Virus record (IMG/VR): IMGVR_UViG_3300013288_000001
Location: 7,140-71,139 of that record
Length of the DNA stretch: 64,000 nt
Origin: a virus
Lineage: Duplodnaviria > Caudoviricetes
Reading direction: 5' to 3' (one strand)
In this document: positions 49,652 through 54,419 of the stretch, piece after piece
Layout: each line of letters opens with the position of its first letter
Position numbering within the stretch: position 1 is the stretch's first letter
Position numbers and translations under genes: made by a program
Notes under the pieces: model-generated
What the model was told of the DNA's origin: nothing
What the model saw: the letters and a program-made list of their open reading frames with translations, nothing else
The model's database searches: none

Positions 49652-49980
49652 CAACCGCTTTCACGCAACGCTTCATTGGCGAAACAAGCACTCTGGAATT
49701 TAAGTTCGTGAATTCCAGCGGGGTAGCAGCCAACCCGTCCGGTATCACGCTCAAGATTGGCGTCTGGAATAAGGCGGCAGGGGTGGTCAATCAACTGACT
49801 GACCCGGCTGTGACCCAATCCGCCATGAGCAACCCGGCAACCGGCACATGGCGCTACGACTACACCTGGGAGCAAGCAGGACTGCATATCATCGAAGTAG
49901 AAACGACTGGCACACCGACGACCGTCATTCGCACTGAGGTCATTGTGGTTGCGCCGGACTTGACCTGGAGCACATCATGA
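49648..49980 (+). CDS. small Ig-like/BppU-like virion protein
   Basis: beta-rich; GTWRYDYTWEQAG. Confidence 0.5.
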   Translation: MTTAFTQRFIGETSTLEFKFVNSSGVAANPSGITLKIGVWNKAAGVVNQLTDPAVTQSAMSNPATGTWRYDYTWEQAGLHIIEVETTGTPTTVIRTEVIVVAPDLTWSTS

Positions 49981-52115
49981 CCAAACCTTTAACCCCCGCC
50001 ATGAAGCGGGCGATGGAAGCCTATCAGACGAACGGCGTAACGGCGCTTTCCGGCGTTGATCCCCGGACGCGGCGGGCGCTGGAAGCCCGTGCGCTCATTC
50101 CCCGCGAGTCGGTGGGGGAGATTGTCGGACGCCCGCGGACCAACCGCATGACGGTCAACTGGCGCGATGCAGGTTTCAGCATTACGCCTACCCGCGATCC
50201 GGGGCAGAGTGACTATCAGTTCTGGGACATGATGTGGCGCGGGCAAGCCAGAGGCTACGAGCTGGCGGGGCTGCTGCTGAAGCCGCTGGCCTCCAAGATC
50301 GCCGCCTGGACGATGGGAACGCCGCCGCGCTTTCGCTCCAAGAAGCCCCGTACCCAGTCGTTATTCAATGAATGGTGGGCTAAGAACCTGCCGAACATCA
50401 TCCGGGGCGTAGAACACGCAGTCATCAAGGGCGATGCCTATCTGGTGGTCAATCCGCCCAACGCGAGAGGCGAACTGACCTTAACCCTACTCCCCCCGGA
50501 AGTCGTGACTGCCGTGGTGGATGAAAATGACTACAGCCGGCGCATCGGCTGGCGGATCGTCGAAGTGCATCCTCACCCGACGCGCATTGCCGATAGCATG
50601 ACGGTGGAAGACATCTACACCACGACGGAACGCATTCGGCGCGTCTGGCGGAGTGGGATGCCCGTTAAAGAAGAACGCTTCCCCAACCTGACCGGACTGG
50701 TACCCGTCATCAAGATCAGCAATGATCGGGGTGCAGATGAAGAGTTCGGACGGTCGGGGGCTGAGGCGCTATTGACACTCTTCAAGATGTACCACGATGT
50801 GCTGAAGGCCGGTCTGGAAGGCAACCTGAAGCAGGGGAGGCCAACCCCGGTACTCGAAAAGATGGGTACTCAGAAACAGATTGACGACTGGTGGGAAGCC
50901 TTCGGTTCCAAGCAAACGCGGGAACTCGACGATGGCACGACGGAAACTTACTACGTGCTGGATCTATCCAGTGACGACGCCATAACCTTAGGCGGCGATG
51001 CCACCTTCCGTTACGCGCAACCCATGAGCTTTAGCGCCGATACAATGAACCTGCTGGGACTACTGTTCTACCTGTACATCCAGCATACAGAAATCCCTGA
51101 GTTCATCATGGGCAACGCTATTGCGTCCTCTAAGGCCAGCGCCGAAACGCAGATGCCCGCTTTTGCCAAGTTCATCGAAAAGAAACAGGGTGAATGTCTG
51201 CACTGGATGAACGATCTGGCACAGGTGGTCATCGCCTTTTTCAGCCTGTATGAACGCGGGGTGAATGCCAATGACGACCTGCAAACCACCTTCGTGCCGC
51301 TCACGTCACAGGACGGACGGTTGACACTGGACGCCATTAAGATGGGGCTGGACTTCGGTCTACTCGACGACGAAACCGCGCTCCAGTTCATGCCACTGGA
51401 CATTGAGAACCCGGAACAGGTCATCCTCAAGGCGCGGCAGGAAGCGGAGGAAAAACGACTGGCGGCACGGCAAGCCCGGATGCAAGATGACATCGAAGTC
51501 TCGCCCGTTGTCGAACCGCGCAACCCCAATCCCGCCGAGTCTGCACCAGTCCAGCGGACGCTCTCAGAAGCCAAGCATACCGGCGCGATGTTGGCCTTTA
51601 TGCTGGATGGCACAGCAGCCTCAGCACTCGCCAGCGCGGTTGAAATGGCGGGTATCCCGGCGGCTGATCGCCTCCCTACCGATGAGCTGCACCTGACGCT
51701 GGCCTACTTAGGCGATACGTCGGAGTTGGACTTTGAGGAAAGCGATGTCATGCAGGTGTTAGGGGACTTCGCTGGCACCGAGTTCAACGTGAGAGGCAAA
51801 CTGAGTGGCATCGGACGCTTTACCAATGTGGAAGGGCCAGAGGCGACCGTGGTCTATGCGTCGGTCGATGCACCTGCCTTGCCCGCTTTCCGGCAAGCTC
51901 TGGTCGAAGCGCTAGGCGACAACGGCATTGACCATGCCCGTAACCACGGCTTTACCCCGCACATTTCGCTGATGTACCTGAAGCCGGATGTCCCCACGCC
52001 CAACATCGAACTGCCTGATCTGGAGATGGTCTTTGACCGTATCACATTGATGTGGGGAGATAATCGGACGGATTTCAACTTGAAAGGATCGCCACTGGAG
52101 ATGATCCCGGCGTGA
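49977..52115 (+). CDS. portal protein with C-terminal 2H phosphoesterase domain
   Basis: Position before head genes, portal-like N-terminal ~480 aa; C-terminal HLTL and HISL 2H motifs. Confidence 0.8.
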   Translation: MTKPLTPAMKRAMEAYQTNGVTALSGVDPRTRRALEARALIPRESVGEIVGRPRTNRMTVNWRDAGFSITPTRDPGQSDYQFWDMMWRGQARGYELAGLLLKPLASKIAAWTMGTPPRFRSKKPRTQSLFNEWWAKNLPNIIRGVEHAVIKGDAYLVVNPPNARGELTLTLLPPEVVTAVVDENDYSRRIGWRIVEVHPHPTRIADSMTVEDIYTTTERIRRVWRSGMPVKEERFPNLTGLVPVIKISNDRGADEEFGRSGAEALLTLFKMYHDVLKAGLEGNLKQGRPTPVLEKMGTQKQIDDWWEAFGSKQTRELDDGTTETYYVLDLSSDDAITLGGDATFRYAQPMSFSADTMNLLGLLFYLYIQHTEIPEFIMGNAIASSKASAETQMPAFAKFIEKKQGECLHWMNDLAQVVIAFFSLYERGVNANDDLQTTFVPLTSQDGRLTLDAIKMGLDFGLLDDETALQFMPLDIENPEQVILKARQEAEEKRLAARQARMQDDIEVSPVVEPRNPNPAESAPVQRTLSEAKHTGAMLAFMLDGTAASALASAVEMAGIPAADRLPTDELHLTLAYLGDTSELDFEESDVMQVLGDFAGTEFNVRGKLSGIGRFTNVEGPEATVVYASVDAPALPAFRQALVEALGDNGIDHARNHGFTPHISLMYLKPDVPTPNIELPDLEMVFDRITLMWGDNRTDFNLKGSPLEMIPA

Positions 52116-54388
52116 TTACCTATACCCGCTTCTCCATTGAGGCGATTGAACGGGACTTTGCTGACGCTTTTGAGCCGGGGGTAGACCGGATTACGCGCCT
52201 CATCCAGCAACGCGCCAGCGCCGATGGTTCACTCAACCTGAGCGGGGGTGCAAAAGACCTATTCATCGATGCCATCGGCGATGAAGTCTCCGCACTCTTC
52301 ACCCCACGCGGTAGCCGCAACGCATTCGGGCGCGATGGGGTGACGGCTCAAGCGCCGTTCCCGGTGACACTCAACCGCTGGTATGCCAACGCGGTTTATA
52401 GAGCGGTGAAACCTCATGCCGACTGGATGACCAAGCGCGTGCCACTGGACATTCAGCGGGCGCTCAAAAGCCGCGTGCAGGTGCGACGGGAGAGTTATTC
52501 ACCCATAGGCGAAACGACCAACCCGATTAAGGGATTGTTCGTGCCAAACCCGCTGGCGCAGTATGACCCGATGCACACCTGGGTAGACCCCAATGGCTAT
52601 GTCCTCTCCCAACGTATCTGGCGGGCAGGGGAGGCCACGCGCTCCAAGATTGACCGCTTGTTAGCGGACTTGATTGCGCGGGGTACAGGTTCTCTGGAGA
52701 TGTCCCGTATCCTCGAACAGTTCCTGCTTCCCGGACGCGAGTTACTCCGTACTCGTAGACCCTACGGCACCGATGCCAGCTATGACGCCATGCGACTGGC
52801 ACGGACGGAGATCGCCCATGCAGCGAACCAGGCAGCAGCCATCGCCGCCTACAGCAACCCTTATGTGGAAACCATTGACGTAGCGCGTTCCCGGTGGGGC
52901 GATCCCAATTGCAAGATTTGCCCGCAACATGCGACCATCGGCATTAACGGGGAACGTATCCGGCCAGCGTATCCAAAAGGCAGCTTTCGCATTCCACCTT
53001 TTCATCCACATTGTGTTACACCGGGTCAATTGGTGAACACTATGCGGGGCATAATCCCGATTGAAAATGTCGTGGAAGGTGATTACGTGCTTACGCACAA
53101 GGGGCGTTATCGGAAGGTGCTGGCAGCATGGAGCAAGCAGTATGACGGCTTAGTCCATGCTATCCAGACACCTTCAGGGGTTTTCGAATTAACCAGCGAG
53201 CATCCCGTTTTAACGTCTGAACGGTGGCTTGATGCCCAATTTATCCAACCGGGTCAACAAATCCTCTACGCAGCTATCTACGCTCCGCTCAATAGCATCT
53301 TGAGTGTACCGGAAAGTCATCCAGCCGAACCCCTCCAAAGCAGCATCTCGACGGGCGTCTTTGTCCGGTTTATGCCAGCCGCGCCCGTCACATTCAATCG
53401 CTACTCGGCAAGGAACAAGAGCAAAATCAAGCGAATAACGCCATACCCGATATTCCCGATGGAAGATGAGCTTGTTTCGGGTAAGGGCTTCAGCCATTGC
53501 ACGTTCAATCGACGTTGGCTCCCCATTACGCCGCATTTCAAAAACGCGCTCCAGCATGGCAGCAAGGCCGGGGTTGTATCGCTTTTTGGCAGCAGACATC
53601 TTTTTGCGAACTTCTGGTCTGCTCATGGGATTGTTTTCGCCACTCCGAACCAAAGCGGCACTGATAGATTTATACATCGCACTGGTCATGGCAGATCGGG
53701 TTCCATCATCGTGCGACCAAGTAGCAGCAACGGCTTGACTTCTGGTTTTAAGCTCCAATCCGGCGCGCTTCATCAGACTGCGAAACATACGGAAAGTTAT
53801 CCCCAACTCAGTTCGGATGGCGGGATGATTAAGCCTTTGAGTGTAGTAGAGGTCGGCAAGGACTTCGGAGTAGGGGCGATTGAATTGCCCTTCAATTCTG
53901 GCGATATGCTTGAGTTGGGCGTGGGAAGATCTGCAACTAGGGGCTTTGCAAATTTTGCCAGTACAGGGGGAATCACAAACCAAACAGCGGTTGAGCTTTG
54001 TCACGATAACCTCTCGTCGTTATCTCTCGATGTTGAAGTGGGCGCTGCGTCGAGAAACGCAGTTGTCAGCAGGGTAGCTATCCCTACTCAAGCCCATCTC
54101 TATTATAGCACGGTCGAAGGCGTAACAACCCGGCATTATTCAGGACTGGTCTACAACATGCACGTTGAAGAAGATAATTCCTATACGGTGAACAGTGCCG
54201 CTGTTCATAATTGTATGTGTAGAATTCAGGCCAACGTCGGGGACTTCGAGGAAGTGAACCGCCGACTCCGCGAATGGAGCGACATGGAAAACCCGCCGCC
54301 GCTGGATTTTCCAACGCCTTTAGACTGGTCATCGCTGCTGCTTTTGCTCCTGGGAGCCTATTTGTACAGCCAAATCGAGTTTAATTGA
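52112..54388 (+). CDS. head morphogenesis protein (SPP1 gp7/Mu gpF family) with intein
   Basis: RLARTEIA and C..C motifs; the spliced junction restores FHPH-CMCR. Confidence 0.85.
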   Translation: MITYTRFSIEAIERDFADAFEPGVDRITRLIQQRASADGSLNLSGGAKDLFIDAIGDEVSALFTPRGSRNAFGRDGVTAQAPFPVTLNRWYANAVYRAVKPHADWMTKRVPLDIQRALKSRVQVRRESYSPIGETTNPIKGLFVPNPLAQYDPMHTWVDPNGYVLSQRIWRAGEATRSKIDRLLADLIARGTGSLEMSRILEQFLLPGRELLRTRRPYGTDASYDAMRLARTEIAHAANQAAAIAAYSNPYVETIDVARSRWGDPNCKICPQHATIGINGERIRPAYPKGSFRIPPFHPHCVTPGQLVNTMRGIIPIENVVEGDYVLTHKGRYRKVLAAWSKQYDGLVHAIQTPSGVFELTSEHPVLTSERWLDAQFIQPGQQILYAAIYAPLNSILSVPESHPAEPLQSSISTGVFVRFMPAAPVTFNRYSARNKSKIKRITPYPIFPMEDELVSGKGFSHCTFNRRWLPITPHFKNALQHGSKAGVVSLFGSRHLFANFWSAHGIVFATPNQSGTDRFIHRTGHGRSGSIIVRPSSSNGLTSGFKLQSGALHQTAKHTESYPQLSSDGGMIKPLSVVEVGKDFGVGAIELPFNSGDMLELGVGRSATRGFANFASTGGITNQTAVELCHDNLSSLSLDVEVGAASRNAVVSRVAIPTQAHLYYSTVEGVTTRHYSGLVYNMHVEEDNSYTVNSAAVHNCMCRIQANVGDFEEVNRRLREWSDMENPPPLDFPTPLDWSSLLLLLLGAYLYSQIEFN
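53210..54004 (-). CDS. DUF559/Vsr-like (EDxHD-type) endonuclease encoded antisense inside the intein
   Basis: LDFALVPCRVAIECDGRGWH...DARRD.ALE..GW..FRY; NUMOD3-like GENNPMSRPEVRKKMS; Cys-rich N-terminus; GAGAGG RBS and GTG start. Confidence 0.85.
   Translation of the reverse strand: MTKLNRCLVCDSPCTGKICKAPSCRSSHAQLKHIARIEGQFNRPYSEVLADLYYTQRLNHPAIRTELGITFRMFRSLMKRAGLELKTRSQAVAATWSHDDGTRSAMTSAMYKSISAALVRSGENNPMSRPEVRKKMSAAKKRYNPGLAAMLERVFEMRRNGEPTSIERAMAEALTRNKLIFHREYRVWRYSLDFALVPCRVAIECDGRGWHKPDKDARRDAALEGFGWMTFRYTQDAIERSVDSCVEDLLTRLDKLGIKPPFRR
54102..54110 (-). promoter_or_regulatory. extended -10 promoter for the antisense endonuclease
   Basis: TGCTATAAT on the minus strand, about 100 nt upstream of GTG 54004. 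Confidence 0.65.
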
Positions 54389-54419
54389 GGCAAAGTTGAG
54401 AAGTTTGCAAAGATAGTAG

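Follow-up and report, generated by a model that had tools for sequence, protein, structure and literature searches.

We describe here an intein in the MuF-like head-morphogenesis (minor capsid) gene of an uncultured phage, carried on a window of 64,000 nucleotides (the whole stretch of DNA that was analysed), which covers positions 7140-71139 of the complete 71,139-bp viral record IMGVR_UViG_3300013288_000001. The record has direct terminal repeats, and the runs that contain it are bioreactor sludge metagenomes. We interpret the element as a mobile composite, a class-1 MuF intein whose endonuclease slot holds a complete antisense homing-endonuclease gene of the EDxHD/Vsr-like type in exact codon register with the host frame, and we put the probability of this interpretation at about 80%. 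It starts from the anatomy of the element, its recurrence in relatives, the pattern of selection and the presence/absence polymorphism of the intein, all of which we observe, and from these we infer protein splicing, antisense transcription and the cleavage specificity of the nuclease.

The host gene occupies 52112-54388 on the plus strand in the list of open reading frames (ORFs) and encodes a precursor of 758 amino acids, intein included. The N-terminal 300 residues of the precursor match PHROG 1657 "head morphogenesis" (E 2.4e-19), and a match to Pfam Phage_Mu_F (PF04233) stays below threshold with 16.8 bits against a cutoff of 29.6; PF04233 is present in several intein-less homologs of the gene. 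A search with the whole precursor found a single viral relative, which ends at a contig end before the intein. The host gene is held in one 758-codon ORF and is likewise undivided in all relatives, so that it does not consist of the two ORFs with half-inteins that make up a fractured gene.

The intein comprises 400 amino acids from Cys301 to Asn700 (53012-54211, plus strand) between HPH and CMC, with boundaries taken from intein-less alleles that were obtained by searching for shorter relatives of the N-extein. One such allele (P0151) has 358 amino acids, exactly the 758 of the precursor less the 400 of the intein, and its exteins share 97% identity with those of the window; a second (P0152) has 356 amino acids and 86% identical exteins. 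When aligned to the precursor, both leave a clean gap exactly over residues 301-700, at HPH/CMC (the slash marks the junction), showing that the intein coordinates given in a preliminary description of the window, made from its letters alone, were exact. That description had also reported intact splicing blocks, and the residues of a class-1 intein are in place: Cys301 (Cys1), T361-S-E-H364 in block B, H699-N700, and C701 (Cys+1). Among eight related inteins there is no variation in Cys1, in TxxH of block B, in the terminal His-Asn, or in Cys+1.

In an AlphaFold model built on eight related inteins, residues 1-90 and 360-400 are predicted to be all-beta with pLDDT values of 80-97. The N-terminal splicing lobe (intein residues 1-90, 53012-53281, plus strand, pLDDT 80-96) is kept across the 8 inteins, and the C-terminal splicing lobe (residues 360-400, 54089-54211, plus strand, pLDDT 84-97) contains the conserved blocks F and G and ends in VHN/C. 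Compared with the Mtu RecA mini-intein 2IN8 the two lobes give Z 20.4 and an rmsd of 1.6 Å over 129 residues, which identifies the HINT fold. The sense-frame centre (residues 91-359, 53282-54088, plus strand) is predicted to be unstructured, with pLDDT 20-33 and no secondary structure; the frame here runs without stops across the antisense gene and its leader, and no conserved protein is seen in it.

On the minus strand this centre holds an ORF of 264 amino acids with a GTG start (53210-54004), the antisense homing-endonuclease gene. A profile search of both frames gave the split that had been expected, with HINT in the plus frame and DUF559 in the minus frame. The nuclease matches Pfam DUF559 (PF04480) with E 4.7e-12 and 46.2 bits against a gathering cutoff of 20.6, lies above the cutoff for MTES_1575, and matches Vsr weakly. 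It is laid out as a Cys-rich N-terminus, a helical DNA-binding region, a NUMOD3-like segment, and an EDxHD/Vsr-like catalytic domain. The NUMOD3-like segment is the most conserved motif of the family, and the Pfam NUMOD3 profile itself matches only below threshold (E 0.15).

A 25-sequence alignment was used for an AlphaFold model of the nuclease (pLDDT 91) and for determining conserved columns. The top match of the model in the Protein Data Bank is the catalytic domain of I-Bth0305I (3R3P, TM 0.79, rmsd 2.2-2.5 Å), and the next solved matches are the DUF559 protein 3HRL and, after it, 1VSR. Within the catalytic domain (residues 165-255, 53240-53512, minus strand) no variation is seen at E167, D193, E204, D206, or D220, and H211 reaches at least 90% conservation. 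The residues E170/D196/H213/D222 of I-Bth0305I define the EDxHD family (Taylor et al. 2011, PMC3239194) and are spaced 26/17/9, to be compared with 26/18/9 for E167/D193/H211/D220 in the window. The catalytic motif of the preliminary description is better given as E167, D193, H211, and D220 plus E204 and D206. An exhaustive profile-free search returned 2522 relatives of the nuclease at E≤1e-3, of which five are full-length and 38-48% identical. A word-index protein search matched only the window's own truncated product, and scans of viral contigs with single proteins (the nuclease, and P0006) gave no relatives.

Codon register and selection in the two frames

The nuclease and host frames are codon-aligned, (53210-52112) mod 3 being 0, exactly as first noted. 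In this register TTA, CTA, and TCA are the codons read as stops on the other strand. None of the 41 Leu and Ser codons of the nuclease (22 Leu, 19 Ser) is TTA, CTA, or TCA, and it is for this reason that the host frame stays open. Given the amino acids of the nuclease and the codon usage of this phage, such complete avoidance has a probability of approximately 0.003, and 2.3% of the 264-codon windows in the other genes of the phage are open in the aligned antisense register. By the logic of the genetic code, the codon-aligned register should be the one where the choice of synonymous nuclease codons alone suffices to avoid stops in the host frame, and avoidance would cost synonymous choices only.

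The same layout is found in 10 distinct lineages, counted on contigs of close relatives after removal of duplicates, with 38-79% pairwise identity of the nucleases. The insertion occupies the same MuF position in the relatives, ...H/CVTPGQ...VHN/C[MLI]C, and opposite the antisense nuclease the host frame remains open. Of 369 Leu and Ser codons in the 10 embedded nucleases not one is TTA, CTA, or TCA, and each nuclease taken singly has P ~0.002-0.009 when the codon usage of this phage is applied. The avoidance extends to L009, where the GC content of third codon positions is 42%, and to three members with an insertion of approximately 35 Cys-rich residues. Three distant nucleases (L020, L021, and L022; 24-28% identity) are likewise antisense within MuF inteins. 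Among loci with free-standing or in-frame relatives, 26 of 26 carry 5-40 antisense-stop codons and the embedded arrangement is seen in none. The Cys-rich insertion (CxxC...CxxxC) belongs to P0002, P0004, and P0005, where it lies ahead of the catalytic domain; the host frame runs through it without stops in the two contigs read, those of P0002 (L004:3001-3885) and P0005 (L009:1515-2408).

Divergence between the lineages at minus-frame codon positions 1/2/3 is approximately 0.48/0.38/0.65, with third-position values ranging from 0.57 to 0.69, and amino acid identity is 41-52% in the minus frame compared to 20-33% in the plus frame. This is the pattern predicted for a central region under purifying selection in the minus frame only. 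These comparisons indicate that selection keeps the nuclease protein, and that in the host frame it keeps openness only. With third positions near saturation a lucky one-time insertion cannot explain 10 open frames, and ongoing selection is needed. Homologs with stops in the minus frame were looked for as counterevidence, and the intein-embedded homologs have stops in neither frame. All computational checks suggested in the preliminary description thus had the outcome that it expected.

The antisense ORF had been said to extend about 70 nucleotides into the N-terminal splicing domain, and this corresponds to the last 24 codons of the nuclease (53210-53281). In this double-coding zone the end of the final nuclease helix, the tail, and the stop codon on the minus strand are opposite the beta strands of the folded N lobe on the plus strand; in relatives the peptide is conserved on either strand. 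The LGIxPP tail of the nuclease is absent from a free-standing relative (L010, see below), which suggests that the tail of the embedded nucleases is a run-on into intein sequence.

A candidate promoter and a structured 5' leader

An extended -10 element, TGCTATAAT, is the reverse complement of 54102-54110 and is the candidate promoter of the nuclease on the minus strand. The codons that it overlaps belong to the first strand of the intein C lobe, and the element is conserved in relatives: all 10 embedded relatives, and also the free-standing L010, have a TATAAT-like hexamer at a fixed distance ahead of the leader, and TGn accompanies the hexamer in seven of the 10 embedded lineages. Six nucleotides downstream of the hexamer there is an invariant GGGC, followed by approximately 91 nucleotides with a Shine-Dalgarno sequence and the start codon at their end (10 lineages). 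The use of TAT over TAC under the -10 element was considered as promoter evidence and dropped, since TAT outnumbers TAC throughout this ORF in any case.

The 91 nucleotides between the candidate promoter and the start codon (54005-54095, minus strand) appear to form a structured 5' leader of the putative nuclease mRNA, as judged from covariation, from folding, and from a covariance-model match at L010. The covarying structure has four helices, all on the minus strand, namely a closing stem (54092-54095/54040-54043), hairpin 1 (54068-54088), hairpin 2 (54045-54062), and hairpin 3 (54005-54024). In the alignment 95% of the cells are paired, compared to 36-50% when the partners are slid, 12 of the 23 pairs show compensatory double changes, and the observed values were reached by 0 of 500 shuffles. 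The alignment contains 13 G.U cells and 0 A.C cells, which shows that the fold belongs to the nuclease-sense RNA and not to the MuF mRNA. Folded as a single sequence the window leader gives three hairpins with a z of -2.2. Because the Shine-Dalgarno sequence is located in the loop of hairpin 3 and not in its stem, it should not be called "sequestered". Rfam gave no matches at E≤1 on 52900-54400. A second Shine-Dalgarno-like box (54020-54029; compare 54008-54017, minus strand) lies immediately 5' to hairpin 3 as a repeat of the loop sequence; it reads CAGGAGA in most relatives and CGAGAGA in the window.

Taken together with the two frames, this suggests how the element might function. Late transcription would lead to the 758-amino acid precursor, with ribosomes reading through 269 codons that are complementary to the nuclease gene and its leader. 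The 90-residue N lobe and the 41-residue C lobe would then fold as a HINT domain and splice out the 400 amino acids to leave a MuF protein of 358 amino acids, the size of the product of the intein-less allele. The nuclease would be made from its own antisense transcript, starting just past the -10 box within the C-lobe codons, and the 91-nucleotide three-hairpin leader of this transcript would present the Shine-Dalgarno sequence in a loop. In a co-infection the nuclease presumably cuts intein-less MuF alleles, and repair would copy the intein and the nuclease gene together. Two wastewater runs that bear the label RNA-Seq probably consist of DNA reads and were used as contigs, hence without strand, start, or level; no contigs of these runs join the exteins across the intein.

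Mobility, origin and alternative explanations

Exteins that share 97% identity as protein and 90% as DNA differ in whether they carry the intein, and a relative that is approximately 95% identical keeps the element in wastewater assemblies from 2025. The preliminary description proposed that a free-standing nuclease gene had invaded the intein backwards, and the layout at L010 lends support to this proposal. With L010 left out of its construction, a covariance model of the leader matches L010:396-508 (73 bits, E 1e-16) directly ahead of a nuclease that is 38% identical to that of the window, carries the same -10 box and leader, and has 17 stops in its antisense frame. On the opposite strand of L010 an ORF enters from the contig end, finishes tail-to-tail with the nuclease, and contains ...PHPSCMCHIRF..., which is aligned with the HPHCMC insertion motif by a profile of MuF proteins that lack the intein (E 3.9e-6). 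BLASTP of the 47-amino acid MuF fragment against P0151 gave no alignment. The nuclease cassette at L010 is antisense to late genes and lies approximately 100 nucleotides from the motif that the intein occupies elsewhere. From the sequence of this contig, the cassette is seen to exist outside inteins as well, antisense after what appears to be the end of an intein-less MuF gene.

In-frame relatives form a third arrangement. Four MuF proteins (P0015, P0034, P0035, and P0046) have a Pfam intein-splicing match together with an in-frame DUF559/Vsr-like nuclease domain. They share with the window the host protein, the intein, and the nuclease family, with 33-39% identity over the catalytic half, but their nuclease is translated in frame within the intein and lacks the N-terminal ~110 residues. 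P0034 has an ADP-ribosyltransferase exoenzyme domain at its C-terminal end, and P0037 combines MuF and DUF559 with the intein profile unmatched. Gp43 of Corynebacterium phage phi673 (L001:2184-4694), labelled "putative helicase", has HINT and Intein_splicing matches, with the intein absent from its annotation, and an in-frame stretch that is 31% identical to the catalytic half of the window nuclease.

We tentatively suggest that promoter, three-hairpin leader, and nuclease ORF make up a portable cassette that has been caught at three stages of merging with an intein: free-standing and antisense (L010), antisense inside the MuF intein (the window and nine lineages), and in frame (the other MuF inteins). 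This is a possibility to which we give somewhat less than even odds. If the series is true, it would be direct evidence from comparison that bifunctional inteins originate through the entry into a mini-intein of a free-standing endonuclease gene that targets the same site, and the leader would be an undescribed cis-regulatory RNA limiting or timing nuclease synthesis.

Some observations do not sit well with the composite as proposed. No -35 box accompanies the -10 element of the nuclease, and a consensus promoter scan did not flag the site, which is explained by the lack of a -35 box; the earlier proposal that the nuclease has its own promoter draws support from the conservation of the -10 element and from the strand-specific covarying leader. 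The MuF end at L010 is just 47 amino acids long and was identified through a profile match of 87% probability. Finally, when the 97%-identical intein-less allele (L050:1543-2619) is compared with the window at 52985-53011 and 54212-54240, 14 of 24 junction nucleotides differ against a background of approximately 10%; L051, a more distant intein-less allele, is closer to the junction flanks of the window than L050. Either target-site immunity, L050 being a resistant target, or a co-conversion tract fits this divergence.

The strongly diverged target site in the nearest intein-less allele could also be taken to mean that the antisense nuclease is functional but is not, or is no longer, the homing enzyme of the intein, perhaps acting in competition between co-infecting phages or having been domesticated while the intein merely tolerates it. 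Purifying selection on the nuclease shows function and not target, and the free-standing L010 is an example of the cassette existing independently of inteins. However, the intein and its position in MuF are the same for all 10 close relatives, the intein is polymorphic between 97%-identical exteins, and the family prototype I-Bth0305I is a proven homing endonuclease, and we therefore consider this explanation unlikely. Far less probable still is a functionally fractured gene, in which two MuF polypeptides with split-intein halves splice in trans and the central sense frame is untranslated. Vsr-like endonuclease genes are indeed known between split-intein halves (Dassa et al. 2009, PMC2677866), but the sense frame is unbroken in all 10 lineages by complete avoidance of three codons, which would be pointless if the centre was untranslated, and ahead of the C lobe one sees no internal start codon that has a ribosome-binding site. 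The idea that the minus ORF is a decaying remnant, with a double open frame surviving by chance from a single insertion, can draw on the approximately 2% of 264-codon windows in phage genes that are open in the aligned antisense frame by chance. It is strongly disfavoured: with a third-position divergence of 0.57-0.69 codon choice has been redrawn many times, yet stops are found in neither frame, the catalytic residues are invariant, the leader has compensatory changes, and identities of 38-79% exclude that the 10 loci are recent copies. The composite of intein and homing endonuclease thus remains our preferred explanation.

Relation to known inteins and homing endonucleases

The caution on novelty in the preliminary description was well placed, since inteins with antisense endonucleases are already described in a 2025 preprint by Gosselin, Arsenault and Gogarten (bioRxiv 10.1101/2025.01.02.630785), and the window is an additional lineage of an arrangement that is not new as a kind. 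These authors report antisense LAGLIDADG or VSR-like endonucleases in full actinobacteriophage inteins of minor capsid and other genes, find that minor capsid proteins carry only such non-canonical inteins, state that VSR-like endonucleases are otherwise known only from split inteins, and propose an origin by invasion of inteins by free-standing endonuclease genes. The window shares with their inteins a contiguous intein with an antisense VSR-like ORF in the endonuclease slot, an uninterrupted host frame, an unstructured sense-frame centre, and a minor capsid (MuF) host protein. It differs in its source, an uncultured 71-kb phage from bioreactor sludge and not an actinophage of PhagesDB. The text of the preprint makes no mention of a promoter, ribosome-binding site, hairpin, or codon usage. 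A 2026 preprint on a dnaX intein contains a frame-specific selection analysis and is likewise silent on a promoter.

For the DnaX intein of Synechocystis, the description of an antisense LAGLIDADG ORF goes back to Gorbalenya 1998 and Gogarten 2002, as cited by Gosselin et al. (10.1101/2025.01.02.630785). Such inteins, to which the one in gp16 of Gordonia phage Lennon can be added, resemble that of the window in having an opposite-strand nuclease inside an intein with the host frame open, but the nuclease is from a different superfamily, LAGLIDADG as opposed to the Vsr-like fold derived from PD-(D/E)xK. In Lennon gp16 an unannotated antisense ORF of 236 amino acids with a LAGLIDADG-type motif (L052:2214-2924, minus strand) lies inside the MuF intein; as in the window it is in codon-aligned register, and it occupies the same MuF site, ...NC/...HN/CRC.

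I-Bth0305I has the same catalytic fold as the window nuclease, E/D/H/D residues with like spacing, and the same bipartite build with an N-terminal DNA-binding region. It is encoded on the sense strand in a recA group I intron (PMC3239194), whereas the window gene is antisense in an intein, and the N-terminal region of the window nuclease is different, consisting of a Cys-rich segment plus helices. The fractured genes of Dassa et al. (PMC2677866) likewise tie this nuclease family to inteins in phage-type genes from metagenomes, but they are two ORFs spliced in trans, while the window has a single ORF that runs through the antisense gene.

What the present case adds to the 2025 preprint is the complete avoidance of three codons across 10 deep lineages, the near-identical intein-less alleles, the conserved -10 box with its strand-specific covarying leader, and the free-standing cassette beside an intein-less MuF gene. 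It brings an uncultured phage lineage from outside PhagesDB to the inteins with antisense endonucleases, along with evidence of selection holding both frames, and the expression module and the free-standing relative bear on how inteins gain endonucleases. Approximately 800 bases code for one protein on each strand, and automatic gene calling overlooks one of the two. In annotation work, a large intein in which no endonuclease can be recognised should have its codon-aligned antisense frame inspected. Two artefacts stem from the double coding: the public protein collection has the nuclease only as a truncated product of 192 amino acids (P0001) that starts at nuclease residue 73 (window 53210-53788), and in relatives gene callers retain the nuclease and break the MuF gene into pieces.

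Upstream of the MuF gene, the portal gene of the window (49977-52115) encodes a terminal domain that was noted in the preliminary description as a 2H phosphoesterase. A 712-amino acid homolog of this portal protein in L051 has a precomputed match to Pfam 2_5_RNA_ligase2 (PF13563), which fits that assignment.

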